The notes under the pieces are model-generated. The model saw nothing but the letters and a program-made list of their open reading frames with translations, was not told the origin of the DNA and searched no databases. Positions 3,601 to 28,408 of a DNA stretch of 34,632 nt are shown here, piece after piece. The stretch is from Methanobacteriota archaeon (lineage in GTDB: Archaea > Thermoplasmatota > Poseidoniia > Poseidoniales > Poseidoniaceae). Every line of letters begins with the position of its first letter. Position 1 is the first letter of the stretch. Both the position numbers and the translations under genes were made by a program. Location: positions 1 to 34,632 of the forward strand of contig JAAZUV010000002.1 of the NCBI GenBank assembly GCA_018623995.1, written 5' to 3'.

Positions 3601-6600
3601 ACGATCTCATTTTCAATAACAACGCCTACTGGTTCGGTCACCCATGTGACACAGCAACGCAAGGATACGGCGACTTGTGGGAGAACGAGACGCTCACCAT
3701 CCCTGGTGTTGATTTGACCAGCATGTCCGGTGATTTCGTTTCACTGAACTTCGAGTACTATGCAGATACCTTCTACGGTATCGATGTCGACGGAACATCC
3801 ATTGTCGATGTCAACGACTATGCTTCCATCAACGTCGATTTCACCAAGGGTAGCGACACATACTCAGGTGTTCTCCTCGGACAATGGAACGACTACGACG
3901 AAGACGGAACCTGCCGCAACGACGACAACGGTGACGGATTCACGAACTCAAGTGAATCCATCAACCAAGCAGAGATTTCCTTCATCGGCGACTCTGCCAG
4001 CACGGACGGATCTGCCGGCAATTACAACGTCTTCTTCAACACAGACGATCTGGTTTTGAGCCGAAGCATCGACTTGACGCATCTGTACGTCCTCAACAAC
4101 ACCGCTGCAGACAGCTTGCAGTGGTTCCGTGAGTGCATTTCCCTCGCAGGCTCGACCGTTGACATCAACTTCGAGTTCCAGAGCGACGGAGACGGCCGCA
4201 ACGGTATCAACGACGGTTTCAAGGGTGTAGCCTTCAACAACATCACATTACAGGAATTCACATTCTACGAGGATGCTTCCTACACCGTTTCCCGAACCAA
4301 CGTTGATGCAGAAGACGTTGCAACAACCACCGTTGCCAACCACGAGTTCTTCTCCGGTGTCTACATGATTCGTGCAGAGACGATCTTCGACAACACCACC
4401 GCTGGTGTACCATGGTTTGGCGACAATGAACTGAGCAACTCCAACAACATCGAGCAAGTGATCTTCAACGTTGAATCGGTTGACATCACGCTCGGTAAGC
4501 CAAGTACACTTGCGTGCTTGGATGATGGTGTCTACGCTTGTGTTCTCCCAATCGATGGAAGTTTGACACACAACTGGGACCTCAAGGCAACCAACGGTGT
4601 GTTGGCTGGTGATTACATGTTCTACATGACCGTCTTTGACGAGACCGATGGAACACAAGCCTACCAGGCTTCTTCTGCTCCAACGACCACAACACTCGCA
4701 TCCAACGAGCGCATTGACTTGACGTTCCCTGCGTACAACGGTTGGATGGATGGCCACACCTACAACGTCAGTTTCCACGCTGAACTTGCCAACGGAAACC
4801 CAAGCGGTAACGTTCGCTACTTCCATGCAACCTTTGCTGACCAAATCGATGTTGCCATCCTTGGTGATTCAACCGCACGTACCTCGACCATCAAGCAGGA
4901 TCTCCAACTCTTGGGCATGTCCTACACACAGTACGGCATCAACGATTGGACCACCTATCTTGACTCTGGATGGATGACCCACTACGACAAGATTCTCTTG
5001 CCATGGCAAGAAGACATCGCTGCAAAGGACGTTGAAAGCGGTGGCCGTGGTTACTACCAGAAGCTCGGATCAACTGCCAACCGACAAACGCTCGAATCGT
5101 TCATGTCTGCTGGAGGTACCGTACAGGCTCACCTTGGTCCTCAAGGAAGCCAAATCTACGGTCTTGACGTTGGATTGAACGGACGACTACCGTTTGGTAT
5201 GGATGTCCAAAGTCGAAACACACCTGAGACCAAGATTCTCTACACAGGTCTCGACATTGCGGACCCATTCCACCCAATCATGGACGATGTGTCCACGACC
5301 GCCTTCCAAGGCTTCGAGGGTGATGGAACTGTTGCAACAGCCGTTCTCAACACAAACTCTGTTAGCACGCAAAACGTTCCAGGTGTCTGTAACGGATACA
5401 TGGAGGATGGAGGCTTCTTCCAGAGTTTGTTGCGAACCGATGCGAACAGCAAGGACGTCATCATGGGAACATGCAGTTACTACCAAGGTGGAATGATTGT
5501 TTCCACCATTGACGTATCGACCTACTCGTCTCGAGCAGACAGCACAACCTTCCCACTTCTCGGAAACATGCTGTCCTACTCCGTCACGCCTTACCCAGAA
5601 GGATTCGGTGCTATGGGCCAAGATCTCGGACTGACCATTGATGGTGAAATGCCAGGCATTGATCCATCAACCGGTGGCTATGCTACACACTACATGAAGA
5701 GCGATGCGACCGTCAACTTCGGTTACACAACAGCTACCTCAGCAACGCTCACAGCCGATTGGATCCTTGACGGACCAACCGACTGGATGGGCCAAACCAT
5801 GGCAAGCGGAACCGACCACATTTCGGAAGCCTCTCCATCTGCGACCTTCTGTAAGACCGACTTGTCGTCTGCAACAGGATGTCTCCAAGGTGCCACATGG
5901 ACCGTCACTCTGCTTCTGCACGATGAAGCAGGTCACGCTCGAATCATCACCGTCGATGTCGAAACCAACGACGTCCTCGCTGACGCATTCGCACCTGAAG
6001 CAAACATGAGCATCGACATGCGTGATGAATACGCAGACAACATCGAGTACATCGGAACAAAGACAGTTTCCAGCACAGAATGGGACGTCAACCGTGTGAT
6101 TCTCTCCGAAGCTGGTGAACTTGTTCTCCACTTCGATGCGAGTGAATCGTTCGATGCAGATGCCATCGATGGAACCAACGGAATTGTTACCTACGAATGG
6201 AAGGTCTTCTTCGACGCTCCGTACGGTGACACCTCGTTCAACTTGGAAGGACACACGTTCGAAGAATCCGCCGCAAGCAACGGTCTCTTCTCGTACAAGT
6301 TCCAAAACGTCACCGTTGACGATTCAGGAACAGCAGAATCGCAGATTCGTATGGAACTTCGTGTGTACGATGCATCCGGTAAGTTCTCGGACAAGTTCCG
6401 TATGTACTTCGTTGTCGTACCTGAAGGATATGGGGACGAAATCCCAGTCGTTCAATACGACAACTTCGACAACGCCTCCGTGGGCTTCACCTCCGAATCT
6501 GAATTCACCATCACAGGAACCATCCTCTCCGGATCGGAAACAGGTGAGGTCTACGTTGAAGCAGCCTTCAATGAGGATGATTTCTCTGCCTCGGCAATTG

Positions 6601-7376
6601 AGAAGTACAACCTCATTACGGACAAGCGATTTGACCGCAGCGACGCTCTATCAGACTCCGACACGTTCGAACTGTCGCTCTTTATCGGCGACCGATACAG
6701 AAACACAAGCGAAGTTGTGGAAATCTGGGTCCGAGTGTACGAAGGTGACGACGAGCGTTGGTCAGATGAACTCACAAAGAGCGTCATTGTCAAACTGAAC
6801 ATTTGTCAAGGCATTCTCGCAAATGAATCTGCCAGCATTGCTGACGGAGCAGATTCCTTCGTCTGGAATTCAACTACCATGCGCTGTGACTGGATTGGTT
6901 CTTGGTCCTATGATCACGAAACCGGCGTTTGGACAGCGCCAACGACCGATCAACAAGGCACCGAAGATGCAGAGGAAAGCAGCATGATGCTCATTATTGG
7001 TATCATTGCGACTGTTCTTGTCCTTCTGCTTGTATCTGCCTTCTTCCTCCGTGGTGGAAGCGGTGACAAGGTCGACAACCTCAGTGCCGCTGCCGCAGGC
7101 TATGGTCAAGAGATGGATATGACGGAACAATACGTCCAGCAATTGATCGCTCAAGGCTACCCAGAAGAAACCGCACGGGCCTATGCAGCTCAATATGTGG
7201 GTCAATCTGCAGCAGCTGCAGCGCCAGCCGCTGCCGCACCTGCAGCTGCAAGCAACGATTTGTACACGCAGTACTACAACCAGTACTTCCAGCAATTCGT
7301 AGCCCAGGGTTACGATGAGGCGACGGCTGCGCAATATGCACAGCAGTATGCCGCACAAGCCCAACAGCAGCAATAG
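699..7376 (+). CDS. giant (2225 aa) type-I membrane surface protein: signal peptide, FG-GAP/VCBS-like propeller repeats, PKD-like module, C-terminal TM helix, Q/A/Y-rich cytoplasmic tail
   Basis: Single uninterrupted 6.7-kb ORF; start is GTG 699 or ATG 708. The N-terminus KLRSVFLVLIMVLSTTAAFATNASA is signal-peptide-like. Repeated Ca-binding blade motifs are present: DFNCDGHNDMAV, GEFNGDSAPDIAIF, GDINQDGNDDVIIL, GDMDNDGTIDTIAM, ADINGDGEPDFVNP. LHFDASESFDADAIDGTNGIVTYEWKVFF is PKD-like. There are many N-x-S/T sequons. TM helix MMLIIGIIATVLVLLLVSAFFL lies at 6984-7049 and a 108-aa tail at 7050-7373. Confidence 0.9.
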   Translation: MILMQTETNKIGAKLRSVFLVLIMVLSTTAAFATNASASAARNYTTNRDPIDIGIADFNCDGHNDMAVATDGTHTITILLNDGTGDFTERYDVWVSKNTSRNAEWDEFSNVQFLEVGEFNGDSAPDIAIFQRNNPFKTDDNGAPAGEPGNLTILENDGCNSDSFTIGQRYTHFWAWDLAVGDINQDGNDDVIILDLLNDISNQRVVTYMGPIGASTTPMVTALGTANTNSYRSLEIGDWGESQQGLTGQCYDEDIWLLRSEGVDYATGQTTNPGNDDNVTIIEFNCQTNLFPATYTFSTSTQAGSHVVNMANIFGAFDIGDMDNDGTIDTIAMTQGNLENITFSTSSAVGTWSSPTLAYFGPYISYDVTVADINGDGEPDFVNPTVAYQQNTSDSAGGSTSSFWLNFPTTVQVTLSDGSGGHVTPLSYEAGRRPNIAVVGQLAGASTSAPDIVVGHASYNFGNWVDNLGWDAQYDYLTVVEMDSKDIAVTGIEINPVDRFFGIVGEGNRDINVTITNTGMDTLTQNANLDVVLQVVDEANSSNSTVFSHDFDTPADATGCGGGCTWAFNEYVDQSSNWILETNHSVGGSDGNNAPNVSANYQNPTDFMWAGEYKTNSSGDEWSGYGRHWDDALTLEDVDLTGSDRAFLSVELFRHLGYGALGSVDATTGQWLIGDLWDDVAMIEVGSAETGWSTIACPTSAQVAGECLSGSSIWGGYDNDRAFKINGYGGVAEGRYYYGVFSSGTYYGWSNFTQEGVGEFDLSPWAGETVDIRFRLRSGFEGSIADDNESLWSGRDGYAIDNITIYKQNTAYFPNPQTLQQPLALTNLGPGEEETASISANLLNDTIYRISATLSNHAWDEQSVNDEIIGYIQPFNLYDPTVEGIDYFNPGGLYAEGMFDIDVITNNWGNTMVDYDIKATVFSATPSDVLCSAPAVICKESFEGGANGYVYSDDGNPQGAIYNEATCNDLIFNNNAYWFGHPCDTATQGYGDLWENETLTIPGVDLTSMSGDFVSLNFEYYADTFYGIDVDGTSIVDVNDYASINVDFTKGSDTYSGVLLGQWNDYDEDGTCRNDDNGDGFTNSSESINQAEISFIGDSASTDGSAGNYNVFFNTDDLVLSRSIDLTHLYVLNNTAADSLQWFRECISLAGSTVDINFEFQSDGDGRNGINDGFKGVAFNNITLQEFTFYEDASYTVSRTNVDAEDVATTTVANHEFFSGVYMIRAETIFDNTTAGVPWFGDNELSNSNNIEQVIFNVESVDITLGKPSTLACLDDGVYACVLPIDGSLTHNWDLKATNGVLAGDYMFYMTVFDETDGTQAYQASSAPTTTTLASNERIDLTFPAYNGWMDGHTYNVSFHAELANGNPSGNVRYFHATFADQIDVAILGDSTARTSTIKQDLQLLGMSYTQYGINDWTTYLDSGWMTHYDKILLPWQEDIAAKDVESGGRGYYQKLGSTANRQTLESFMSAGGTVQAHLGPQGSQIYGLDVGLNGRLPFGMDVQSRNTPETKILYTGLDIADPFHPIMDDVSTTAFQGFEGDGTVATAVLNTNSVSTQNVPGVCNGYMEDGGFFQSLLRTDANSKDVIMGTCSYYQGGMIVSTIDVSTYSSRADSTTFPLLGNMLSYSVTPYPEGFGAMGQDLGLTIDGEMPGIDPSTGGYATHYMKSDATVNFGYTTATSATLTADWILDGPTDWMGQTMASGTDHISEASPSATFCKTDLSSATGCLQGATWTVTLLLHDEAGHARIITVDVETNDVLADAFAPEANMSIDMRDEYADNIEYIGTKTVSSTEWDVNRVILSEAGELVLHFDASESFDADAIDGTNGIVTYEWKVFFDAPYGDTSFNLEGHTFEESAASNGLFSYKFQNVTVDDSGTAESQIRMELRVYDASGKFSDKFRMYFVVVPEGYGDEIPVVQYDNFDNASVGFTSESEFTITGTILSGSETGEVYVEAAFNEDDFSASAIEKYNLITDKRFDRSDALSDSDTFELSLFIGDRYRNTSEVVEIWVRVYEGDDERWSDELTKSVIVKLNICQGILANESASIADGADSFVWNSTTMRCDWIGSWSYDHETGVWTAPTTDQQGTEDAEESSMMLIIGIIATVLVLLLVSAFFLRGGSGDKVDNLSAAAAGYGQEMDMTEQYVQQLIAQGYPEETARAYAAQYVGQSAAAAAPAAAAPAAASNDLYTQYYNQYFQQFVAQGYDEATAAQYAQQYAAQAQQQQ

Positions 7377-10809: not shown

Positions 10810-12726
10810 TCAATCTCGGCGTGATGAAACCCATCCTGCTGCAACCAATCCAATCATCAGCGTAGCAAGGAGTCCTGGAGCAGGAAGGATGTTCCCGCCC
10901 TCATCTTCGCTGTTGGTTGTGGTTGAATCGCCACCTGAATCTGTGCCTCCAGCGTTCGGATCAATCACATCGATGCTCAAAGTGGTCGATGCACCAGACT
11001 CATCGGTTGCAACAATAACCACATTGTATGGTGATTCGACGTTGTTCTGGATGCAGTTGGCAATGGAGACTTGAATTTCCCATGCGAGATTGTCTCGATT
11101 GAAATTCGATGTTTGGCCGTTGCAGATGCTCAAGACCATGCTCACATCTTGACCATCAGGATCGATGACGTTTCCATTGAGCGTAAATTTCAGTCCATCG
11201 AGTTCCCACTCAGCCTCTTGACCCTGAAGATTGGTATCAATTGTAATCGTTGGAGGTGTGTTTGCCTTTTCAATGCCCAGATCAAGCATGAAGTTGTAAT
11301 CCAACATCCCATTGGCGGTGGCTGAACCCATGATCATGACTTCGCCAGGTGCAAGGCCAGACATCGACAACGAGAGAACCGTGAAGGCCCCTTGAGCCAC
11401 CGCAGTCGTTTCCGAGCCCATAGCGGACATTTGATGTGCGTGAGCTGTTACAGTTAGGCTTTGAACAAGGTCGGTTGGTGCAACAGTGAATTCGATTTGG
11501 TCACCGTCACTTGACACTGCTGCAGAGGCGTCCATGACCTTGCCGAAGGTGTAGTTGCGGTGTTCAACGGTTTCTGCGCCAAATGCATCGACGCCAGCAC
11601 ACTGTCCTACGGCTGAATCACCGTTTGCAGTAACGTACAACGCAGCGTTTTCATCCATGCGAACATCCCAGCCAGCATCGACGAAATTACATTGCAAACT
11701 CCATCCGCTCTCGTCGGTCACCCACGTACCTGCATCTTCGCTTGCAAGCATCTCTCCGTTGGTTGTTCCAACTGGGATGATGGTCCCTTCAGCGGGTGCA
11801 AGTGCGGTCCAAACAGGGTCCTCGTTGGTGAACGGTGCCATGGTCGTAAAGTCAACAAACAGATTACGGACCATTGGATAGGAACCGAGCGGGTAATCGA
11901 CATCAGCGACGATGCGCAATCGTCCGTCAGGCAGGAATTCGCTCTCTGGTACTGCAAGTGCTTCGTTGAGAACTCCGTCGTCATAGAAGCCCATTTCAGC
12001 AACACGTAGTCCTTGTTCGACCGGGAAGGTCATGATCAAGCGTGCATCGGTGATGTTGGTGATGTTCATGGCGAGTGTAAAGTTCGAACTACCTTGGTTC
12101 GGAAGCTGGTCAAAACGCACATTGTTGTTCTCATTTTCAGCAATAAGCAGATGAATTTCCAGATCGTCCGTCACTGTGACCGGGACCTCCTTGCATCCTG
12201 CATCTGAAAGTGGGCTACTGCATGATCGCTCTTGCTCGTGACCGGTTGGAACGAGGTTGACTTCATCGAGTGCAATTCCGTCCTCCACGAATTCAAGATC
12301 GTTCCAGTCCACGTTTCCTCGATGTGCAAGCCCTTCACGAATACCGAGTCGGGTTTCCATGTCGGCGATACACTTTGGTCCGATGGAGCGAACAGCTTCT
12401 CGCTCGTCGGTTGAAATCCAGTCATCGTCACCACCAGGGACGCCCTCAAACAGACCATCCAAATTGTCTCGGACAACAGCGGATTTGCTGCCGTTCACCC
12501 ATGCTCTCGCATCCATGACCCCAGTAGCCCAATCGTCGTTCACATCGAGCGTGAAGAGAGCGAAATCGTATTCGAAGAGGTCTTCGAACGTGTAGCCACT
12601 GCAATCAACATCGAGGCTACCTTGACGTCCAGATGTTGTCTGAACAGGTTCGCTTTCATCCAAAGTGGACATTTCAATCGACGGACTCACGAGGGCTAGA
12701 AGCATCATGATGAGGACGGGTATCAT
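10810..12726 (-). CDS. secreted/cell-surface protein with C-terminal PGF-CTERM-like anchor (hypothetical)
   Basis: 638 aa. Signal-like N-terminus MIPVLIMMLLALVSPSIEMS. An Ig/cadherin-like C-terminal module is present (..NGNVIDPDGQDVSM...VVIVATDESGASTTLSIDVIDPN). A G/S/T/D linker is followed by LPAPGLLATLMIGLVAAGWVSSRRD-stop. Confidence 0.8.
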   Translation of the reverse strand: MIPVLIMMLLALVSPSIEMSTLDESEPVQTTSGRQGSLDVDCSGYTFEDLFEYDFALFTLDVNDDWATGVMDARAWVNGSKSAVVRDNLDGLFEGVPGGDDDWISTDEREAVRSIGPKCIADMETRLGIREGLAHRGNVDWNDLEFVEDGIALDEVNLVPTGHEQERSCSSPLSDAGCKEVPVTVTDDLEIHLLIAENENNNVRFDQLPNQGSSNFTLAMNITNITDARLIMTFPVEQGLRVAEMGFYDDGVLNEALAVPESEFLPDGRLRIVADVDYPLGSYPMVRNLFVDFTTMAPFTNEDPVWTALAPAEGTIIPVGTTNGEMLASEDAGTWVTDESGWSLQCNFVDAGWDVRMDENAALYVTANGDSAVGQCAGVDAFGAETVEHRNYTFGKVMDASAAVSSDGDQIEFTVAPTDLVQSLTVTAHAHQMSAMGSETTAVAQGAFTVLSLSMSGLAPGEVMIMGSATANGMLDYNFMLDLGIEKANTPPTITIDTNLQGQEAEWELDGLKFTLNGNVIDPDGQDVSMVLSICNGQTSNFNRDNLAWEIQVSIANCIQNNVESPYNVVIVATDESGASTTLSIDVIDPNAGGTDSGGDSTTTNSEDEGGNILPAPGLLATLMIGLVAAGWVSSRRD

Positions 12727-12772
12727 GTTTGGACGAGACCAACAACGTTCATCAATGCTTGGTTAAGAACAG

Positions 12773-13603
12773 TCAAGGAACAAGCCGATTCAGTCGACGC
12801 TGGAACAGGTAGACCGGTACAATTGTCCATAGGATGGCAGCAAAGTAAGCGCCAAGTGCTGAAACACCTCGATCAACCCCGTCCAATCGGGTCTCCAAAA
12901 GGTGATGATAGACTCCGTTCGGAGAAAGCAAATCCAAGCGCCCCTCAAACACGAGGTATCCTTGATCTTGAGTGTCGCCAACTGCAACGCCGTTCAATGC
13001 AGCGAGAAGTGTCGTGAACAGGACCCAGAGCAATGTGAACAAGAACCACAGGCCGATTGAAAATGCAATGGCAGAGCCTTGTTCCTTGGCAATACTTGAT
13101 GCGAGCAGGGCGAAGACAGTGTACCACAGAAGAATTAACATCGCTGCAACGATGTAGATCAGGGCATCACCAAACGGCATCCACATACCGCTTCGATATC
13201 CTACAAGCATCATGGATGCAGCCAAAAGAACTGCCACAGGAAGCGCAATGCTGCTCCAATGGCCAAACATGAGGACAACACCTTGTCTCCATCGTGGCAT
13301 TGGTTGGGAAAGGCGGACTTCGAGAACACCGCTCACACGATCTCGGCTTATTCCATCGTGAGCGATGAGGACGGCAGCCATCGTCCCAGCAAAGACGATA
13401 CCAATGCTTGCAAGGAACATGACTTCCGTTCCGTTCTTTGGAAGCTGTTCTGCTGGAAGCTGAATGTTTGGGTCTGCGAAACCCCAAGCCATTCCTGGAA
13501 TGAACAACAAAAGAATCGGCAGCATGATCAACATCCGTGTCGACAACATTCGTTGCTTACTGAGAGCAAACGCAAGCCGCCACATTCGTTTGGATGGTGT
13601 CAT
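12773..13603 (-). CDS. ABC-2 type transporter permease
   Basis: 276 aa with six hydrophobic segments, typical of ABC-2/NosY-like permeases. Its ATG overlaps the stop of the upstream ATPase gene (ATGA, 13600-13603). Confidence 0.8.
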   Translation of the reverse strand: MTPSKRMWRLAFALSKQRMLSTRMLIMLPILLLFIPGMAWGFADPNIQLPAEQLPKNGTEVMFLASIGIVFAGTMAAVLIAHDGISRDRVSGVLEVRLSQPMPRWRQGVVLMFGHWSSIALPVAVLLAASMMLVGYRSGMWMPFGDALIYIVAAMLILLWYTVFALLASSIAKEQGSAIAFSIGLWFLFTLLWVLFTTLLAALNGVAVGDTQDQGYLVFEGRLDLLSPNGVYHHLLETRLDGVDRGVSALGAYFAAILWTIVPVYLFQRRLNRLVP

Positions 13604-13617
13604 TCTTCCTCACCACC
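13600..13617 (-). promoter_or_regulatory. Shine-Dalgarno plus stop/start overlap (translational coupling junction)
   Basis: The minus strand reads GGTGGTGAGGAAGAATGA (GGEEE-stop of the ABC-2 ATPase, with the ATG of the permease inside). It matches the phnC/phnE-like junction at 17 of 18 positions. Confidence 0.7.
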
Positions 13618-14610
13618 CACTGTTCGGAACGGTATCATGCTGCTTTGTTCAACATCCATTCCGATGGTTTCCCGATCCATCCCTGTTGCTGCGCAAAGCA
13701 GTTCGATGAGCGTTGGAGGTACAACTCTCCAGGTTGAAATTGTATGATTGTTCTTCACGAGTGTCTCGAGAAGGTCATGATGGCCCGATTCGATGACATA
13801 GCGATGTTGTCTTTCGGATTCGATGTGTTCGAGAACGTTCATTGCGTCGAGAAGTTCTTGCTCGATTTGCCGATCGAGAACGATTTCAGTCATTTGTTCA
13901 AAGCCAAGATTGGCTCGAAGTGAATCGGTTGTGCCATGAGCGAGCAGTTGGCCACGGTGAAGCAATGCAATGGTGTCAACGAGGTGATCAAGTTCTGCGA
14001 GATGATGGCTTGAAACGATGATCGAGATGCCTTTGTTTGCTAACGAGCGAAGCAAACGTTTGAACGCATCAATTGCAACTGGATCCATGCCATTGAATGG
14101 TTCATCGAGGACGAGAACACGTGGCGTTCCAAGCAAAGCAACGCCCAATGAAAGCCGTTGCCTCATACCTTGACTCAATGAATCAAGGGTAGAATCCATT
14201 CGATTTTTGAGTCCCACAACGGCAAGAACATCGAGTGCAGATTGAACCGAGCAGCCACGCAAGTGTGCAAATTCAGTCATCGTTCGACGAATGGTTCCTT
14301 GACTCGACCATCGGACTTGTTCAGGCATGAATCCGACCAAGGAACGTAAAGCATCGCTGTCCATTACGCTATCATGGCGTTTCACCGTTCCTTCTTCGAG
14401 CGGGAGGATGCCGCTGATCATCCGCAAGAGTGTGGTTTTTCCAGCACCGTTTGTTCCTACTAAGCCAATGATGCTTCCTTCCGGAATGGAAAGATCGACG
14501 TGGGTGATTCCCGCTCCTTTTCGTTTTTTGAACGGATTGTACCATGCAGGATTTGGAATTTGGTGGCGATATCCGATGGAGTCAAACTGCATCGCATCGT
14601 CATCCCCCAT
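13600..14610 (-). CDS. ABC transporter ATP-binding protein (ABC-2 exporter type, with C-terminal extension)
   Basis: 336 aa. Walker A GTNGAGKTT, signature LSQGMRQRL, Walker B VLVLDEPFNGMD, H-loop SSHHL, and a roughly 100-aa C-terminal domain ending GGEEE. Confidence 0.9.
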   Translation of the reverse strand: MGDDDAMQFDSIGYRHQIPNPAWYNPFKKRKGAGITHVDLSIPEGSIIGLVGTNGAGKTTLLRMISGILPLEEGTVKRHDSVMDSDALRSLVGFMPEQVRWSSQGTIRRTMTEFAHLRGCSVQSALDVLAVVGLKNRMDSTLDSLSQGMRQRLSLGVALLGTPRVLVLDEPFNGMDPVAIDAFKRLLRSLANKGISIIVSSHHLAELDHLVDTIALLHRGQLLAHGTTDSLRANLGFEQMTEIVLDRQIEQELLDAMNVLEHIESERQHRYVIESGHHDLLETLVKNNHTISTWRVVPPTLIELLCAATGMDRETIGMDVEQSSMIPFRTVGGEEE

Positions 14611-15585: not shown

Positions 15586-15636
15586 TTTTAGGGTGGCCTA
15601 AAATTATATACTACATAGTTTTAGGGCAACCGAAAA
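15582..15636 (+). promoter_or_regulatory. two operator-like palindromic direct repeats flanking a TATA-like box upstream of the transferrin-like ABC operon
   Basis: ATAGTTTTAGGG occurs exactly twice (15582-15593 and 15615-15626), 33 bp apart. Repeat 1 contains a perfect inverted repeat, TTTTAGG-GTGG-CCTAAAA (15586-15603). Repeat 2 is TTTTAGG-GCAA-CCGAAAA (15619-15636, one mismatch). TTATATA sits between them at 15604-15610. GGAGAG (15638-15643) precedes ATG 15647. Confidence 0.55.
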
Positions 15637-15646
15637 CGGAGAGATA

Positions 15647-17758
15647 ATGATGCTACACGCAACGAAAAAACCGATACTGCTAGCCCTATTGATTGTTCTT
15701 GGATCCATTGCCGGATGCATTGGGAACGATGAAGAAAAAACTGAACTGGAGACCTTGACCGTCGCATTTGAAGTCAAAGATGATTACACGAATGTCGATG
15801 AGAACCCTCAGAAGTTCGCCGACTACCTTGCGAATGAACTCAACATGAATGTTGAACTCTACCCAATCGATTCAGAGGGCGCGATTCTCGAAGCTCTTCG
15901 GTTTGGAAATGCTGACATCGCTTTCATGGATGGTGCAGCCGCATGGGTAGGTTGGCAACAATACGGTCTCGATGCATTAGCAGCAGACCAAAAGTCCGAC
16001 GGACGCACATATTACAACGCACATGCGGTCGTTTTGAAGGATTCAGAAATGGCTATTGCTCACCTTGATGGTGATGATTCAACAGACCCGTTTGCTCTCC
16101 TTGCTGGAAAGACGTCGTGTCACACTGGGTGGCTAAAGTCAGCAGGCATGCTTCTACCAATGGGCTTCCTCATTGGTAACGGATACGCGAATGTTATCGG
16201 CGATCCAAACGACATCGAATCGTTGCGAAGCACAGTCTTGAATTTCTTCAGCGAAGACTCGAGCATCCCTGATTCGGGAACTCCCTATTACTCGTACTCA
16301 GGGGCCGTAAAGTGTCTGACTGAGGGTGCAGGAGATGTCGCGTTCGCCAAGGATTCGACCATTTCATCCTACTGTGGCAACACTGATGCTGCAGAAAACG
16401 AAGAATGGTGTCTCCCTGAAGATGATTACGTGCTCCTACCATCCTACGGTGCTGCTCCATCTCACCCTGTGATGTACAACCCTGAACTGCTCGATGCTGA
16501 GCTCATTACATCCATTCAGGATGCGCTTGTTGGAATGAAGGATTCTGAGGAAGGGCAATCTGTGTTGACCAATGTGTTGAACACGCCATCGATTGTAAAG
16601 ACAACAGCTCAGGAGCACCTTTCTTCCTACGGGAACCTTGTCAAAGATTTGCCAGGTATTCAATCCTATTTCGGTGATAAATTCGGCATTTCAGACACCG
16701 TTAGCCCAACAGTTTCAAACATTCGAATTGCCTTTGAAATCAAAGAGGATTACACGGATGTTGATTTGAACCCACAACTATTGGCTGATTACATCGCTGA
16801 AGAAACAGGCGTGGAGGTCACACTCTATCCAGTTTCATCCGAAGGAGCCATCATCGAAGCACTACGGTTTGGCCATGCTGACATCGCCTTCATGGATGGA
16901 GGATCTGCTTGGATGGGCTGGAAAGAGTACGGTCTTGCAGCAATGGCTGCCGACATGAAGTCCGATGGCCGAACCTACTACGATGCACATGCAGTCGTTC
17001 TCAATGGTTCAGACATGGCCAATGCATACCTCGATGGCGACGATTCGACAGATCCGTTCGCACTTCTCGAAGGTAAGACCTCCTGCCATACAGGATGGTT
17101 GAAGTCTGCCGGAATGCTCTTGCCGATGGGTTACCTGATTTCTGAAGGATACGCTCCTGTTGTGGGGTCAGAGGATGACATTGAATCATTGCGTTCAACC
17201 ATCTATTCCTACTTCAATGAGGATGCGAGCATTCCTGATTCAGGAACGCCATATGCATCGTACTCTGGTGCAGTCCGCTGCTTGTCCGAGGGAGTCGGTG
17301 ATGTGGCCTTTGTCAAGGATTCAACCATCGCAAGTTACTGTGGTAACGAAGATGCCGCAGAGAATGAGGATTGGTGTCTGGATGAGGACGAATACATTCT
17401 TCTTCCTTCCTACGGGTCTGCACCATCACATCCTGTCATGTACAATCCTGACCGTGTAGATATACAAACAAGAACTGCGATTTTGAATGCTCTGCTCTCA
17501 ATGAACGATGAGATGTACGTCGAAAACTATCAGATGGGTGGTCAGACGTACACGGGATGTTACAACATGAACTCGCACGCTGTCGATTCTGACCAACCAA
17601 AGAATGAGTGTGGAGATCAAATCCTCTCAAACATTCTGAACACGCCTGGTATTGTTGAAGTGAACACGCAAGAGCACATGGGAATCTATGGAGATCTCAT
17701 CGGCTCGATTCCTGGAATCACCACGTATTTTGATACAAAGTATGAGATTCAGGAATAG
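15647..17758 (+). CDS. tandem-duplicated (bilobal) transferrin-like / PhnD-family substrate-binding lipoprotein
   Basis: 703 aa. Lipobox LGSIAGC (Cys24). Two homologous lobes span about aa 35-350 and 355-703. Each carries transferrin-type motifs: ADIAFMDG, TYY.AHAVV, GKTSCHTGWLKSAGMLLPMG, YSGAV(K/R)CL(T/S)EG.GDVAF.KDSTI and APSHPVMYNP. Confidence 0.85.
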   Translation: MMLHATKKPILLALLIVLGSIAGCIGNDEEKTELETLTVAFEVKDDYTNVDENPQKFADYLANELNMNVELYPIDSEGAILEALRFGNADIAFMDGAAAWVGWQQYGLDALAADQKSDGRTYYNAHAVVLKDSEMAIAHLDGDDSTDPFALLAGKTSCHTGWLKSAGMLLPMGFLIGNGYANVIGDPNDIESLRSTVLNFFSEDSSIPDSGTPYYSYSGAVKCLTEGAGDVAFAKDSTISSYCGNTDAAENEEWCLPEDDYVLLPSYGAAPSHPVMYNPELLDAELITSIQDALVGMKDSEEGQSVLTNVLNTPSIVKTTAQEHLSSYGNLVKDLPGIQSYFGDKFGISDTVSPTVSNIRIAFEIKEDYTDVDLNPQLLADYIAEETGVEVTLYPVSSEGAIIEALRFGHADIAFMDGGSAWMGWKEYGLAAMAADMKSDGRTYYDAHAVVLNGSDMANAYLDGDDSTDPFALLEGKTSCHTGWLKSAGMLLPMGYLISEGYAPVVGSEDDIESLRSTIYSYFNEDASIPDSGTPYASYSGAVRCLSEGVGDVAFVKDSTIASYCGNEDAAENEDWCLDEDEYILLPSYGSAPSHPVMYNPDRVDIQTRTAILNALLSMNDEMYVENYQMGGQTYTGCYNMNSHAVDSDQPKNECGDQILSNILNTPGIVEVNTQEHMGIYGDLIGSIPGITTYFDTKYEIQE
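15749..17755 (+). repeat. internal gene duplication (lobe 1 about 15749-16696, lobe 2 about 16709-17755)
   Basis: The two halves of the binding protein align residue-for-residue over most of their length, with long identical peptide runs (GKTSCHTGWLKSAGMLLPMG, DGDDSTDPFALL, DIESLRST, IPDSGTPY). Lobe 2 has an extra Cys-containing insert (ENYQMGGQTYTGCYNMNSHAVDSDQPKNECGDQ). Confidence 0.85.
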
Positions 17759-17781: not shown

Positions 17782-18528
17782 ATGGAACCACTTCGGATAA
17801 ACTGGGGTGGCTACATGGAACAGGATACGCCGCTCCTCGTTTTGGAAAACTTGAGTATTGGCTACAACGCTGTACTCGCCTCCGGAATCAGTGCCAGTAT
17901 CCATGCAGGAGAAGTTATTGCAGTCCTTGGTCCTTCAGGCATTGGTAAGACGACTCTTGTACGAACAATTGCTGGTTTGGTGGAACCGATCGACGGTAGA
18001 GTCGAATTGCTTGTTGACAAACGGGGAGGCTTGGGGTACATCCCACAAAAGCTCGGTTTGGTGCGACACGCAAGTGTGTATCATAATGTCAACCTAGGAG
18101 CACGAGCGAGCCTCCCCGTGCTCAAAGGGGGATCGGACGAGAGGAAAAAGAGGGTCAACTCAGCACTTTCTGCACTTGGTATTGAAGAAAAGACAACTGA
18201 GCCAGTACGTCGCCTCTCGGGGGGTCAACTCCGGAGAGTCGCAACGGCTCGTGCCCTTGCACAGCGACCAAGTTTACTTCTAGCAGATGAGTTTCTGAGC
18301 GAGTTAGATCACAATACAGTTGATGTCGTCATCGCAGCAGTGAAAGAGTTGCTCGATGCTGGCACTTCGATCATTATGGTTGAGCACCATGAAGAAAACG
18401 TGACTTTACTCGCAACTCGAGTTTGGATAATTGAAGGCGAGAAACTCTACGATTTCTCGATTGATGAGTGGAAATCAAACAATTCTCCTGTCCAGGTTGG
18501 TCTCTCCCCAGGAGGTGAGGAAGAATGA
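17782..18528 (+). CDS. ABC transporter ATP-binding protein, PhnC-like
   Basis: 248 aa; alternative start ATG 17815. Walker A GPSGIGKTT, signature LSGGQLRRV, Walker B LLLADEFLSELD, H-loop VEHH. Ends GGEEE. Its stop overlaps the start of the next gene. Confidence 0.9.
   Translation: MEPLRINWGGYMEQDTPLLVLENLSIGYNAVLASGISASIHAGEVIAVLGPSGIGKTTLVRTIAGLVEPIDGRVELLVDKRGGLGYIPQKLGLVRHASVYHNVNLGARASLPVLKGGSDERKKRVNSALSALGIEEKTTEPVRRLSGGQLRRVATARALAQRPSLLLADEFLSELDHNTVDVVIAAVKELLDAGTSIIMVEHHEENVTLLATRVWIIEGEKLYDFSIDEWKSNNSPVQVGLSPGGEEE
18511..18528 (+). promoter_or_regulatory. Shine-Dalgarno plus stop/start overlap (translational coupling junction)
   Basis: GGAGGTGAGGAAGAATGA encodes GGEEE-stop of the ATPase and contains GGAGGTGA plus the ATG of the permease. 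The 15-mer GGTGAGGAAGAATGA is identical to the junction at 13600-13614 on the minus strand. Confidence 0.7.
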
Positions 18529-19403
18529 GAAAATCGTTTATCCTCGCTATCCTCGTTCTTCTGTATTTGTCGTGTATAACACTCTACAATTTGGTTGATG
18601 ACTGGGGTAGACTAGAGGGTGGATGGGAGAACCTCACCATATTCGTTACCGAGAGCATGTGGCCCCCTAACTGGTCTGTTCTTGAGGCACAATCCTACCC
18701 TGTGTGTGAAAAAGACATAGAATTTTTCTGTTCTGTTGGCTATCTTGGAATGGTTGAGACAATAAAAATCGCCTTCGTATCAACGATCCTTGGATTCATT
18801 GGAGCCCTTTGCTTGTCATCCTTTGCTGCTCGAAACCTCATGCCCATGTACATCGCTTTACCGTGCCGACTCATCCTTGCAGCAACCCGAAGTCTTCCAT
18901 CGCTTATTTGGGCAATTCTATTCGTCATCGTCATCGGTTTTGGACCACTCGCTGGTGTCCTTGCAATGACCTTCTACACAATTGGGTACCTAGGCAAGTT
19001 GCAATATGAGACCTTTGAGGGAATGCCAAGCGATGCCTTGGAAGTGAGTAAAGCAATGGGGCTCTCACACGCAACAACGTTCACTTCGGTTGTGATCCCA
19101 GAAACAGGGAATCATCTTCTCAGCCAATTGATGTTCATGTTCGAATACAATGTACGGCACGGAACAGTCATCGGAATTGTAGGAGCTGGTGGCATCGGCT
19201 ATTACATCAATACATACATGAAATTCTTGCAATATGACAAGGTTTTAGCCCTCTTAATCATCATATTCGTGGTAGTTGTTGTTATTGACTTAATGTCATT
19301 GATGGTTCGTTCCTTCGTTACCGATGAAGGTGACGTGCGCCGCCCAACATGGTTGAAGGCTATGATCAAATTGTATCGGAGTCGAAACTCCTCATCGCAA
19401 TAA
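18525..19403 (+). CDS. ABC transporter permease, PhnE-like
   Basis: 292 aa, multi-TM, with an EAA-type loop (ALEVSKAMGLSHATTFTSVVIPE). 4-nt ATGA overlap with the ATPase gene. Confidence 0.85.
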   Translation: MRKSFILAILVLLYLSCITLYNLVDDWGRLEGGWENLTIFVTESMWPPNWSVLEAQSYPVCEKDIEFFCSVGYLGMVETIKIAFVSTILGFIGALCLSSFAARNLMPMYIALPCRLILAATRSLPSLIWAILFVIVIGFGPLAGVLAMTFYTIGYLGKLQYETFEGMPSDALEVSKAMGLSHATTFTSVVIPETGNHLLSQLMFMFEYNVRHGTVIGIVGAGGIGYYINTYMKFLQYDKVLALLIIIFVVVVVIDLMSLMVRSFVTDEGDVRRPTWLKAMIKLYRSRNSSSQ

Positions 19404-24817: not shown

Positions 24818-27800
24818 TTATTTTCGATGAACCCATTGCTGGGTTGATGGATCTCGGTAGAACCATTGTTGGCTTCCTGATGGATGTTCAATCCATTCCA
24901 TGCCATCACGCATGGCGCCACGAGTCGCATATTGTGGATATTCAATCGATGGAGCCTCCTCAAAGCCATCACTCTCTTTTCGTCGCATCATGGTGAATCC
25001 AATCAATACGACAACAACCACACCTGCAACCCAAACAAGCATGTTTGATGTGAGCAAATTCTCATCTGAACCTGCTCCTTTCAATTCGTTTTGTTCATCA
25101 GAACAGCCTTTTGCATTGGCAATTTGATTGGCACCTGTATTTGCACATTCATCGTTGGCGTCATACACGCCATCACCATCTGAATCCATTTGCCATGCTG
25201 AGCATCCATTCGGAGCTACAGAATCAGCGAGTGTGTTTGGACAAAGGTCGAATTTGTTGAAAATCCCGTCCATATCATCGTCACGCTGATTCCATGAACA
25301 TCCATTTACATCGACCGTTTCGTTAAATTCAGTGTTCGGACATGTGTCGATTGAAGTACAGTTCGATGGCCCTTGAGAAGCGGCATCTCTGTTGCAAATT
25401 AAATCCAAATCAGTATCGACTTGAAGATCTGAACAGCCTGAATCATCTATTTCAGCCCCGATTGCAGTGGCTTCACACACATCCCAATAATCGTTGATTG
25501 AATCTTGGTCGGAATCACGCTGCTTTCTGTCACACCCGTTCGCATCAGCATCTCCGGGGATTTCGGTGTATTCACACAAATCATTGCCGTTGTCCACCCC
25601 ATCGCCATCGCTGTCCTGTTGTGCCCAACTACAACCATTGCTATCGGTGCTTACGCCTGTTGAAGTGCCCGGACACTTGTCTTCGCCAGTGCAATCGGAT
25701 GGGCCGTCACTTGGAGCATCATCGTTGCAGATGCCATCGAAATCTTCGTCAACCTGGCCTTCTGTACAGCCATTTTCATCCGTACTCACGCCTGCGGGCG
25801 AGTCCATACAAAGGTCAACAAAATTCGCTACACCGTCGTCATCATCATCGAGTTGTTCTTCACTGCATCCGGTTTCATCTACGACCCATTGAATATCTGT
25901 CAGTGGACATGCATCGACTGAGTTGTTGAACCCATCTCCATCGGAATCTTTAGTCATTGAGATGTAGTTATCGCTTTGACCTGGCTTGATGAGTACAACC
26001 TCCTCATCTGGGTGATACAATGGTGCAACAACATCACTTGATCTGTACACTTCACTTTCAGCGAGAAAGCTCAGATTGCCTTCATCAATTGAGTATGTTT
26101 TGAGAATCGTTGTTGCTCCCTCTTGTTCATCATCACATCTCCAAGAGCAGTATTCCAGCAACACAGTGACGTAAATCATTTTCTGATTCTTTGAGAATTG
26201 GATATCAATAATTTCTGAATCGTTTTCTGTTACAGCGACAGTGGTAGTAGTGGTTAATTTTGATGCTGAATAGGTCATGATTTCCTCATCCGAATGAAGG
26301 AGGAAGTGTCCTCCATCAGAGGTGAGTTGCATCGTATCTGAACCCCTCATAGCACGTGTCTCCACAAATTCATAATTTTGCGCGTCCCAGACGACAATCT
26401 GCGATCCATCACCACCAAACAGCCAGCCGCCGTCACGAGAGAATTGGAACATACTTGGAGCAAAATTGCTGTCTTGAAGCAGTATTGACTGCATTGAACT
26501 GTCGAGCAGAATGGTCTCTACTCTGTACCCAGAATTGTATGCAGATAATACAACCATGTTTCCATCATGTGAATACGTTGTGCTGTCAGCCCTCACACCC
26601 CTACAATCTGAAAGAAACACTTGGAGTTCAGATAACACCTGAGTTTGTACATTCCAAGTTTGAAATTCACATTCCGAATCATCGTTGCTTATGGTCAACA
26701 ACAACTCTTGGCTATCCGGGCTCCACTCGTAATCATTGAAGTAATAGTCTCCAGGTGCGTATATCGTGTATACAACTGAAAGATCCTTGTCCATAACAAA
26801 AACGTCCCCATATGAGGGAGACTTTCTTGCAGCGATAAAATCCCCATTTGGAGCAAATTCAAGGTACCCGTAATCTTTTGAATTTTCGATGTGCGTTCCA
26901 TTGAAGTCCCACAAAATATTCTCCGGGCAGTCATTGAATGCATCCAACGGGCATTCGTCGCTCTCATCGCTCAACCCATCGCCATCTGTATCTCTCTGCA
27001 CAGACGAGCAGCCATTGCGATCCGTCTTCGAATTGGCTGCGGAGTCGGGACAAACATCATCTGAGTCGGCTATACCGTCACCATCTGAATCCAACAATTG
27101 AGAGACTGAGCAACCCCTCGCATCGACAGATGAGGTATCCTTCGTGCGAGGGCAGTCATCGAATTTGTCATTGATTCCATCTCCATCAGTATCTCGTTGG
27201 CTTGATGAGCAACCCGATGTATTCGATTCCTCTTCAGGGGGGGTTTCAGGGCATTGGTCTTTGGAATCATCTACACCATCTTCGTCCTGATCAGGCATGT
27301 AGCCAACCAATTTCGTAGTATCGTAGCCACCAGATATGAGAACAAAAATTTCAGAATCATTTGCTGAAAAACTTGCGTCTTTGTTTCCGTAGGAGACGTC
27401 TAAATCTCGTTCAAAATCCCAATCCATTGTTGAGTAAATTCCGATGTCACCAGTCGAATAAGAACCAATTGTTTGGAGAAATGACGTTCCATCATGTGAA
27501 AATTTTGCCTCTCCTGTTGTATATTGGATTGTATCACTTAGCGTGTAGTCGTTGGTCGTATACACGTAGGTGCTTGAACCGTCGTTTGCTATGAGAGCAT
27601 CACCGTCAGGGGATGCGGCAAGGTCGTACACTGGACTTTGGATTGTAAATGAACGCGTTAACACCCATCTCTTGCCTGCAAGAGGAACGTCTTGATACTC
27701 GTAAACGTTCCCTGAGCCATCAGAGCCTACGTACCAAATTTTTTCCTCGCTTGGATGATGAGTGACTAATATTCCGGTGGAAGAGGCACCCTCAACTTCA

Positions 27801-28408
27801 TTCCAATCAGGAGCTTCATACATGTGGCCGCCGTTGTTGCCTGTGGCGACAATGACTCGAGTGCTATCTCCGGACCATGTGACTGAATTGAAAAAGAAAT
27901 TATCGCCTGTGGAGCGAGATTGACTGACTACCTCCGTCCATGTCGCTGTTTCAACGACCGAGAATGTTTCTGGTGAGCGCAAAGCTAGGTACTGCCCGTC
28001 TGGCGAAAACATGACATCTCGCAAAGAATCACTGTTCTGAATCGTGTGAAGGAGGCTCAAATCATGCGTGTTGTATACGATCACATCGCCAGTTTCATCA
28101 TCGCACCCTTCTGAGTAAATGGCAAGCATGTCGAGAGTGCTGGTCGCAGTAATGAGGTAATCAGATCCATAGTAACTCCTACAGCCATCATCAACAAAAA
28201 TTTCCCTGTGAATCACCCAATCTCCATAATGCACTGAACGCCCTGAAGTCCCTTGATTGGCGGCTTCCTCCGGAGAAAATTCATGCATGTGGATTGGACT
28301 TGTTGAACAGAGAACGAAGAGCAGTGAAAGAAAAAATGGAAGAATCGTAATACGACTACTCATTGAATAGATTCTCTGCACTGACCTACATAGGTGTTTA
28401 GCCGACAC
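24818..28408 (-). CDS. 1196-aa type-I membrane surface protein: two beta-propeller (TolB/WD40-like) modules alternating with two thrombospondin type-3-like Ca-binding repeat arrays, TM helix, 55-aa cytoplasmic tail
   Basis: The track start is GTG 28408; the likely start is ATG 28363 (MSSRITILPFFLSLLFVLCS, a signal peptide). Propeller blades: FSPDGQYLA, WSGDSTRVI, ASPDGDALI, FSHDGTSFL / FAPNGDFIA, WSPDSQELL, YSHDGNMVV, FSRDGGWLF. TSP3-like units: DTDGDGINDKFDDCP, DSDGDGIADSDDVCP, DTDGDGLSDESDECP, DSDGDGFNNSVDACP, DSDGDGVDNGNDLCE, DDDMDGIFNKFDLCP, DSDGDGVYDANDECA. TM helix at 24986-25045. Confidence 0.9.
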   Translation of the reverse strand: MSAKHLCRSVQRIYSMSSRITILPFFLSLLFVLCSTSPIHMHEFSPEEAANQGTSGRSVHYGDWVIHREIFVDDGCRSYYGSDYLITATSTLDMLAIYSEGCDDETGDVIVYNTHDLSLLHTIQNSDSLRDVMFSPDGQYLALRSPETFSVVETATWTEVVSQSRSTGDNFFFNSVTWSGDSTRVIVATGNNGGHMYEAPDWNEVEGASSTGILVTHHPSEEKIWYVGSDGSGNVYEYQDVPLAGKRWVLTRSFTIQSPVYDLAASPDGDALIANDGSSTYVYTTNDYTLSDTIQYTTGEAKFSHDGTSFLQTIGSYSTGDIGIYSTMDWDFERDLDVSYGNKDASFSANDSEIFVLISGGYDTTKLVGYMPDQDEDGVDDSKDQCPETPPEEESNTSGCSSSQRDTDGDGINDKFDDCPRTKDTSSVDARGCSVSQLLDSDGDGIADSDDVCPDSAANSKTDRNGCSSVQRDTDGDGLSDESDECPLDAFNDCPENILWDFNGTHIENSKDYGYLEFAPNGDFIAARKSPSYGDVFVMDKDLSVVYTIYAPGDYYFNDYEWSPDSQELLLTISNDDSECEFQTWNVQTQVLSELQVFLSDCRGVRADSTTYSHDGNMVVLSAYNSGYRVETILLDSSMQSILLQDSNFAPSMFQFSRDGGWLFGGDGSQIVVWDAQNYEFVETRAMRGSDTMQLTSDGGHFLLHSDEEIMTYSASKLTTTTTVAVTENDSEIIDIQFSKNQKMIYVTVLLEYCSWRCDDEQEGATTILKTYSIDEGNLSFLAESEVYRSSDVVAPLYHPDEEVVLIKPGQSDNYISMTKDSDGDGFNNSVDACPLTDIQWVVDETGCSEEQLDDDDDGVANFVDLCMDSPAGVSTDENGCTEGQVDEDFDGICNDDAPSDGPSDCTGEDKCPGTSTGVSTDSNGCSWAQQDSDGDGVDNGNDLCEYTEIPGDADANGCDRKQRDSDQDSINDYWDVCEATAIGAEIDDSGCSDLQVDTDLDLICNRDAASQGPSNCTSIDTCPNTEFNETVDVNGCSWNQRDDDMDGIFNKFDLCPNTLADSVAPNGCSAWQMDSDGDGVYDANDECANTGANQIANAKGCSDEQNELKGAGSDENLLTSNMLVWVAGVVVVVLIGFTMMRRKESDGFEEAPSIEYPQYATRGAMRDGMEWIEHPSGSQQWFYRDPSTQQWVHRK
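25094..25957 (-). repeat. thrombospondin type-3-like repeat array 2 (coding)
   Basis: About eight degenerate units (NGCS.xQxDxDxDGxxNxxDxC) within aa 818-1105. Confidence 0.75.
26924..27295 (-). repeat. thrombospondin type-3-like repeat array 1 (coding)
   Basis: Three to four units of C-x-x-x-Q-x-D-[ST]-D-G-D-G-x-x-D-x-x-D-x-C-P within aa 372-495 of the surface protein. Confidence 0.75.

Follow-up and report, generated by a model that had tools for sequence, protein, structure and literature searches.

A genuine transferrin-family lipoprotein as the receptor of a probable metal-regulated ABC importer in marine Poseidoniales

The analysis described here concerns a 34,632-nucleotide stretch of contig JAAZUV010000002.1 (assembly GCA_018623995.1; hereafter the window) from an archaeon of the family Poseidoniaceae, and in particular a gene encoding a 703-residue, two-lobed binding protein that is followed by genes for the ATPase and the permease of an ATP-binding cassette (ABC) transporter. 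The binding protein truly belongs to the transferrin family, and the three-gene operon is considered, with a probability of roughly 78%, to encode a high-affinity Fe(III) importer of the Poseidoniales in which this lipoprotein is the receptor and expression is controlled by a DtxR-family repressor. A previous reading made from the sequence alone (the sequence-only reading) had already proposed a bilobal transferrin homologue where automatic annotation would report a phosphonate-binding protein of the PhnD family. The coordinates of all features are given in Table 1.

The search with the Pfam transferrin model PF00405 has revealed a match of 146.7 bits for the whole protein, and each lobe was also significant when analyzed separately (78.2 bits for lobe 1 and 76.4 bits for lobe 2, with a cut-off of 20.3), as the sequence-only reading had anticipated. 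The comparison with the phosphonate-binding model PF12974 that it had also proposed was less informative, because this model scored as high as PF00405 (161.2 bits for the whole protein, 89.6 for lobe 1 and 76.1 for lobe 2), and the two families therefore cannot be told apart with Pfam only. The receptor did not pass TIGR03431, the equivalog model of PhnD (72 bits versus a cut-off of 261.1), and E. coli PhnD, used for calibration, reached 267.7 bits on PF12974 without any match to PF00405. When all PDB sequences were searched with phmmer, lactoferrins, melanotransferrin and serotransferrins were retrieved, a lactoferrin being the best match (3.5e-30). A profile built exclusively from archaeal lobes matched melanotransferrin at 3e-60, with the transferrin family accounting for 60 of the 60 PDB matches listed, and matched E. 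coli PhnD only at an E value of 1.7e-7 (hhalign). Thus, neither the equivalog model nor the profile comparison placed the receptor in a PhnD clade. An exhaustive phmmer search of lobe 1 against 1.84 billion cluster representatives yielded just 386 proteins at E <= 0.001, among which the named non-archaeal proteins were eukaryotic transferrins; a typical PhnD-like query is expected, from the known size of that family, to match far more proteins. The receptor did not match the FbpA or FutA binding-protein families at E <= 1 in Pfam/NCBIfam, and the Fea1 domain (PF07692) was absent from it in the Pfam scan.

The residues that bind iron and the synergistic anion in transferrins are present in both lobes. 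Every residue named in the sequence-only reading (the Asp, the two Tyr and the His, the Thr and Lys of the anion site, and the cysteine pairs) was found at the position assigned to it, and so was the lipobox cysteine Cys24 in the motif IAG/C. In the HMMER alignment, D95 corresponds to lactoferrin D60 (and also to D395 of its C-lobe), Y123 to Y92, Y217 to Y192 and H273 to H253 ('vPsHpvm' versus 'VPSHAVV'), while T160 and K164 of the anion site correspond to T117 and R121, and lobe 2 repeats the full set. The iron ligands, the Thr and the basic anion-site residue, as well as Cys24, are invariant across 120 close homologues. An alignment of 98 lobes showed that Asp/Tyr/Tyr/His (D/Y/Y/H) and the Thr are common to the clade of the query, the one-lobe archaeal forms and the ichthyosporean and metazoan lobes, and that E. 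coli PhnD has G/Y/H/D at the same four columns. Across species genomes, the site is intact in lobe 1 of 56 of the 57 two-lobe proteins, in all 24 one-lobe forms and in lobe 2 of 44 of 55 proteins. The degenerate second lobes occur mainly in a subgroup with a FEA1-like gene upstream, a situation that recalls melanotransferrin. Among the two-lobe MGII (Marine Group II, or Candidatus Poseidoniales) paralogues, several proteins (P0122, P0123, P0126, P0130, P0132 and the transferrin-like genes of L046-L056) have lost the ligand set of lobe 2 and kept that of lobe 1, in one example with NSSDDD instead of DYTKYH.

The sequence-only reading had noted the replacement of the anion-site Arg by Lys and had mentioned a possible unusual synergistic anion. 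Lys is the commonest state in eukaryotic lobes with a complete D/Y/Y/H set (28 with Lys and 9 with Arg among the 37 lobes sampled in this analysis), and its presence is no reason to invoke an exotic anion.

The high PF12974 score may also be read as automatic annotation reads it, that is, as belonging to the PhnD-type protein of an ABC system that imports phosphonate, phosphite or phosphate, with the transferrin-like residues serving for anion binding. The subfamily model TIGR01098 gave 106.7 bits, just below its cut-off of 112.05, and the anion site of transferrin is homologous to the phosphonate site of PhnD. Homologues are named 'ABC-type phosphate/phosphonate transport system substrate-binding protein' in JGI and 'PhnD/SsuA/transferrin family substrate-binding protein' in NCBI, and 'the transport of phosphonates' has been listed as a core trait of MGII (Tully 2019, PMC6336850), a statement that presumably rests on this operon. 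On the other side, MGII is never mentioned in a global survey of marine phosphonate genes, and PF00405, as noted above, does not recognize E. coli PhnD. The ligands of E. coli PhnD, reported by Alicea et al. 2011 to be Y47, Y93, S127, T128, S129, H157, E177 and D205 (mature numbering), were checked against the E. coli PhnD sequence and compared with the receptor. Y93 is retained as Y123, and the helix N-terminus pocket is partly kept, with T128 conservatively replaced by S165, S129 replaced by A166 and S127 falling in a gap. Y47, E177, H157 and D205 are replaced by E77, S237, Y217 and H273, the last two being the Tyr and His of the transferrin site, so that both amine-binding residues (E177 and D205) are gone. 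Together with the failure of the PhnD equivalog model, these replacements make a receptor for phosphorus anions very unlikely, and the gene context and the regulation presented below also argue against it.

The structure of the receptor has been predicted with AlphaFold2. The prediction from the single sequence (predicted local distance difference test, pLDDT, 35.4) was repeated with a 36-sequence alignment, which gave a pLDDT of 85.9 and a predicted template modelling (TM) score of 0.69, with pLDDT values of about 88-94 in the blocks around the ligand residues. A Foldseek search of this model against the PDB returned only members of the transferrin family among its best 50 matches (top 1.8e-30), with no PhnD among them. 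The whole-chain TM-scores between the model and the PDB matches were just 0.3-0.4, which is consistent with a lobe-lobe orientation in the model that differs from that of the matched structures.

The two lobes are 61% identical (BLASTP E 2e-162), in agreement with the tandem duplication that had been claimed for this protein. Besides the lipobox cysteine, the receptor contains ten cysteines (158/223, 243/255, 480/545, 565/577 and 638/655). Lobe 2 is longer because of an insertion of about 31 residues, seen as a gap in the alignment of both lobes and modelled by AlphaFold2 as a beta-hairpin (strands 622-630 and 633-640). The insertion carries one copy of a cysteine-bracketed module, C-Y-N-x2-[ST]-H-x(6-14)-C, that is found four times in a three-lobe protein (P0105) and in one to five tandem copies at the C-termini of MGII FEA1-like proteins (e.g., L050:8062-9711), and that was absent from the eukaryotic transferrins and other MGII paralogues checked. 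It may serve for docking or for attachment to the surface, or as an auxiliary site of metal binding.

The sequence-only reading had also placed the receptor in an operon with ABC transporter genes, and this has been confirmed. The ATPase and the PhnE-type permease are encoded downstream on the same strand, the start of the permease gene overlapping the stop of the ATPase gene by 4 nt, and the order transferrin-like gene, ATPase and PhnE permease on one strand was kept in 64 of the 67 loci with enough downstream sequence. The best NCBIfam matches of the ATPase were AztA (118 bits) and PhnC (115 bits), both under their cut-offs. The permease passes the PhnE equivalog model, which speaks for phosphonate transport; in contrast, no gene for C-P lyase or phosphonatase and no Pho-related gene is present among the annotated open reading frames (ORFs) of the window.

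Two copies of a palindromic operator flank a TATA-like element, the putative promoter, upstream of the receptor gene, with operator 2 placed where the transcription start is expected. In the window, four strand-matches to the operator were found versus 0.30 expected, and none was located elsewhere. In orthologous loci, operators 1 and 2 lie at about -62 and -29, a tATATa-like element occupies the same place between them in 29 orthologous upstream regions, and the layout of operator, TATA-like element, operator, about 12 bp and start codon is kept in orthologues with protein identities as low as about 64%. Since the arms and positions are kept while the 4-bp spacers vary freely, the operator constitutes a phylogenetic footprint. 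The TTAGG-N4-CCTAA core was found 143 times in 1.21 Mb of MGII loci, compared to 1.16 expected, and the genes behind it encode transferrin-like proteins (62), the cognate ATPase (15) and FEA1-family proteins (10), the other 45 genes being mostly divergent neighbours or spurious small ORFs.

The arms TTAGG/CCTAA of the motif are those of the DtxR/IdeR iron box, TTAGGTTAGCCTAACCTAA, and some MGII copies of the operator read TTAGGTTAGCCTAA. A Pho-type or Fur-type operator was considered and set aside, and a DtxR-type assignment is favoured because the motif is GC-cored, has these arms and adjoins dtxR genes. Divergent from the transferrin-like gene, with the operators in between, lies a gene of the DtxR family in three loci of marine group III (MGIII; L069, L070 and L074) and in three contigs (L130, L175 and L198). 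Its product has three domains (Fe_dep_repress, Fe_dep_repr_C and FeoA-like). The transferrin-like protein of L130 is a full-length orthologue of the query (73% identity). In a metagenome scan covering at least 120 stretches with the double operator, whose counts are not frequencies, the operator adjoined transferrin-like genes in at least 18 stretches, FEA1-like genes in at least 13, DtxR-family genes in at least 29 and NRAMP genes in at least 9. The operators are thus probably bound by a metal-dependent repressor of the DtxR family. The regulation points to a metal and not to phosphorus, the operator being common to FEA1, NRAMP and dtxR genes with no phosphate-related gene among those seen here. 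The earlier claim of ferric iron rather than phosphonate stands as regards metal over phosphorus, with Fe(III) itself as the metal suggested by the conserved ligand set.

The FEA1-like genes code for proteins that match PF07692, 'low iron-inducible periplasmic protein' (89.6-94.1 bits), and NF038033, 'FEA1-related lipoprotein' (342-393 bits versus a cut-off of 250), and in about ten MGIIb-type genomes one of them is located directly upstream of the transferrin-like gene. Lipoproteins of this FEA1/ISIP2a family lie behind the double operator in L050:8062-9711(+), L048:680-2203(+), L044:3434-4894(+), L046:2163-3818(+), L055:8458-9702(+) and other loci, and a homology search gave 846 matches at E <= 1e-5, those carrying names being from MGII. 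MGII archaea thus possess relatives of both iron-capture families of eukaryotes. The double operator was also observed upstream of NRAMP and DtxR/MntR-family genes (L086, L088, L096, L121, L136, L173 and about 30 further metagenome loci), which in the case of the DtxR/MntR-family genes looks like autoregulation. These metagenome contigs are unrelated to MGII (GC content 0.43-0.48, some with soil- or peat-style identifiers), and the motif appears to be a widespread DtxR-family box that extends beyond MGII. A small hydrophobic, multi-pass-like membrane protein is encoded directly behind the operator in L039:4224-4949(+), L041:4262-4969(+) and L048:4455-4955(+); the L048 copy has no Pfam match at E <= 0.001, and this protein is a candidate additional member of the regulon.

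Table 1. Features of the receptor operon and its upstream region (positions in the window).
Feature	Coordinates	Strand	Details and basis
Operator 1	15586..15603		Palindrome TTTTAGGGTGGCCTAAAA, core TTAGG-N4-CCTAA at 15588-15601; abuts TATA-like element; motif count, conservation
TATA-box-like element	15604..15610	+	TTATATA between the operators; putative archaeal promoter; sequence read
Operator 2	15619..15636		TTTTAGGGCAACCGAAAA, differing from the palindrome at one position; about 10 bp upstream of the start codon; motif count, conservation
Bilobal receptor ORF	15647..17758	+	703 aa; coordinates and length confirmed
Signal peptide and lipobox	15647..15718	+	Residues 1-24, ...LGSIAG/C24; sequence read; A-G-C lipoboxes in homologues
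Lobe 1, transferrin-type	15737..16702	+	Residues 31-352; D95, Y123, Y217, H273; T160, K164; Cys158-223, Cys243-255
Lobe 2	16703..17758	+	Residues 353-703 and stop codon; D417, Y445, Y539, H595; T482, K486; Cys480-545, Cys565-577
Lobe 2 insertion	17519..17617	+	Residues ~625-657; C-Y-N-x2-S-H-x10-C (Cys638...Cys655); alignment gap, module counts
ABC transporter ATP-binding subunit	17782..18528	+	PhnC-like or metal-type; PF00005 97.2 bits
PhnE-family ABC permease	18525..19403	+	TIGR01097 218.8 bits (cut-off 216.7); PF00528 65.5 bits

A transferrin-family ABC receptor might also serve for a cargo other than Fe(III), for instance a small metal chelate, Mn or a different hard metal ion. Some repressors of the DtxR family sense Mn, and in other organisms the same operator precedes NRAMP transporters and MntR-like genes of the two-domain type. 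In addition, transferrin sites can take up a wide range of tri- and tetravalent metals, and the Foldseek matches in the PDB include complexes with Ti, Cr, Bi, Yb, Al and Cu. Nevertheless, the full Asp/Tyr/Tyr/His and anion site, which marks Fe(III) binding in this family, is strongly conserved, FEA1/ISIP2a, the family of the co-regulated neighbour, is 'low-iron-inducible', and the DtxR-family genes adjoining transferrin-like genes have the three-domain DtxR/IdeR architecture, so that another cargo is regarded as unlikely, though less so than a phosphorus anion.

In the Fe(III) importer proposed here, the receptor would be lipid-anchored through Cys24 on the outer face of the membrane, where its two sites would capture inorganic Fe(III). 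Each lobe would close on one Fe(III) coordinated by the Asp, two tyrosinates and the His, and the Thr, the Lys and the helix N-terminus would bind a synergistic oxyanion, for which carbonate is the simplest candidate. The loaded lobe would then dock on the permease of PhnE type; the PhnC-like subunit, by hydrolysing ATP, would open the lobe and power import. Transcription would proceed from the TATA-like element bracketed by the two TTAGG-N4-CCTAA palindromes, and a DtxR-family repressor sitting on these operators, which overlap the TATA element and the transcription-start region, would switch the operon off when intracellular iron is sufficient.

Several points weigh against this proposal. 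The PF12974 match is as strong as that of PF00405 (161 versus 147 bits). The permease is a true PhnE, and anionic phosphorus compounds are the known substrates of that family. The convergence of the D/Y/Y/H residues on one three-dimensional site is expected from homology, and Fe(III) binding by the receptor is likewise predicted from the conserved residues. The regulation indicates a metal and not iron specifically, because the DtxR family includes Mn-responsive members and the operator precedes NRAMP (Mn/Fe) genes elsewhere. Moreover, the window contains no dtxR gene, and its Pfam and phmmer searches gave no FEA1 match, so that the regulatory link for this genome runs through operator identity and orthology.

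The closest homologues of the receptor (75-97% identity) belong to MGII. More widely, relatives have been found in 116 genomes at the species level (Poseidoniaceae, Thalassarchaeaceae, MGIII and other Thermoplasmatota), one of them being the MG-II assembly CM001443 from 2012. Contamination with eukaryotic DNA was considered and is excluded by these 116 archaeal genomes with conserved archaeal synteny. The archaeal operon also appears in three records labelled as bacterial metagenome-assembled genomes (L042, Rhodobiaceae; L054, Rhodobacteraceae; L077, Salinimicrobium), labels that are probably due to binning contamination. Archaeal forms have one lobe (about 350 aa), two lobes (about 700 aa) or three lobes (P0105, 1156 aa). 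The number of lobes is very plastic (P0105, the one-lobe forms of L061-L081, P0125, P0136 and P0142). The nearest non-archaeal relatives are eukaryotic transferrins from the ichthyosporeans Chromosphaera, Creolimax, Amoebidium, Ichthyophonus, Sphaeroforma and Abeoforma, from amphioxus and from the green alga Bryopsis, and the gene-model prefix 'Clim' of another eukaryotic relative suggests Corallochytrium. Among these relatives, at least five lobes are present in a Chromosphaera protein (1894 aa), and many repeated matches in proteins of Bryopsis (2619 aa) and amphioxus (2661 aa).

With such eukaryotic relatives, it may be asked whether the gene is a recently captured eukaryotic transferrin that sequesters or stores iron at the surface, uncoupled from the adjacent ABC transporter. 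With E. coli PhnD as the only outgroup, a neighbour-joining tree placed the archaea among the eukaryotic lobes, but with a support of 13-37%, and this topology was set aside as unreliable. In the neighbour-joining analysis, all archaeal lobes, both lobes of the query included, grouped in a single clade (bootstrap 76), and therefore the archaeal duplication is independent of the eukaryotic one; because this clade spans MGIIa, MGIIb, MGIII and other Thermoplasmatota, any transfer must be ancient. When three closer PhnD-type outgroups were used and the degenerate long-branch lobes were removed, the root was located between an all-archaeal and an all-eukaryotic clade, with modest support for their monophyly (106 of 200 bootstraps for the eukaryotes and 79 of 200 for the archaea). 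A functional coupling to the transporter is argued by the order of the ATPase and PhnE genes kept in most loci and by the operator copy that the ATPase has of its own in some of them. A recent capture is accordingly held to be very improbable, on a level with the phosphonate importer. The lobe phylogeny, which the sequence-only reading had called for, thus indicates an independent duplication, and at its modest bootstrap support the gene may have passed in either direction between archaea and eukaryotes. It is a possibility, although below even odds, that eukaryotic transferrins as a whole have their prokaryotic sister, or even their source, in the archaeal clade, the Fe(III) site having been invented in an ABC binding protein of marine Thermoplasmatota and transferred horizontally later to early holozoans.

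The eukaryotic transferrins (PF00405; sero-, lacto-, ovo- and melanotransferrin) and the archaeal receptor share the fold, the Asp/Tyr/Tyr/His ligands, the anion site, two equivalent cysteine pairs and a bilobal organization by tandem duplication, and melanotransferrin has a single intact lobe site, as do some MGII paralogues. Unlike them, the archaeal receptor has a lipobox anchor, an operon with ABC ATPase and permease genes and a DtxR-type operator; one- and three-lobe forms coexist in archaea, lobe 2 carries the extra CYN..SH..C hairpin module, and the anion-site residue is Lys instead of the Arg of vertebrate transferrins. Eukaryotic transferrin is a secreted soluble glycoprotein taken up by receptor-mediated endocytosis, whereas the archaeal protein would deliver its metal to a permease, but this difference in cellular context leaves the fold and the binding site unaffected. 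The E. coli PhnCDE system belongs to the same superfamily of type II periplasmic binding proteins, has PhnC-like ATPase and PhnE permease partners and has in common with the receptor one Tyr (Y93, receptor Y123) and the anion pocket at the N-terminus of a helix; unlike PhnD, the receptor is a tandem two-lobe protein with no phosphonate catabolic genes nearby and with a metal-type, not phosphate-type, regulatory signature. The FbpABC, HitABC and FutABC systems are functional analogues, with a mechanism like the one proposed here (tyrosinates and a synergistic anion, followed by ABC permease and ATPase). However, FbpA ('bacterial transferrin') and FutA come from other families of binding proteins and are transferrin-like by convergence, while the archaeal receptor is a true PF00405 member with a PhnE-type permease. 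Diatom ISIP2a and algal FEA1 (PF07692) offer an ecological parallel, as membrane-anchored proteins that capture inorganic Fe(III) at the surface in iron-poor seawater, although ISIP2a works by endocytosis in eukaryotes and the archaeal receptor has no PF07692 domain. Phytotransferrin and transferrin share only a distant origin, among phosphonate-binding proteins (McQuaid 2018, as reported in PMC7676907).

Other genes of the window encode transport and surface proteins. An upstream cluster at 10810-14610(-) includes an ABC ATPase, an ABC-2 permease and a 638-aa acidic surface protein without Pfam match. Homologues of this surface protein (10810-12726(-)) of about 670 aa adjoin the operator divergently in MGIIb loci; they have no Pfam match either and were treated as syntenic neighbours and not as members of the regulon. 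A very large predicted surface protein with FG-GAP repeats (2225 aa) is encoded at 699-7376(+), and a 1196-aa predicted surface protein with beta-propeller and thrombospondin type-3 repeats at 24818-28408(-).

In the accessible literature, no account was found of iron acquisition in MGII, of an archaeal transferrin or of prokaryotic PF00405 members with intact iron sites, ABC coupling or DtxR control, although the supplementary trees of McQuaid 2018 may include such sequences; one marine transporter study excluded PF00405 on purpose when counting binding proteins. MGII archaea are among the most abundant microbes of the surface ocean, and this operon, which is core and widely conserved, would be their high-affinity Fe(III) uptake system. 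The reassignment of genes annotated as 'phosphonate transport' alters the metabolic reconstructions of MGII and probably also environmental phnD counts. Co-regulation with FEA1/phytotransferrin-family lipoproteins suggests that the two iron-capture families of eukaryotes that depend on carbonate are both in use in archaea, which matters for predictions of iron uptake under ocean acidification. Transferrin has been treated as a eukaryotic family, and a prokaryotic member wired to an ABC transporter makes its origin from periplasmic binding proteins directly testable. If the archaeal clade is indeed the sister or source of the eukaryotic transferrins, the operon would be a living intermediate between PhnD-type binding proteins and transferrin, with its PhnC and PhnE partners still attached.

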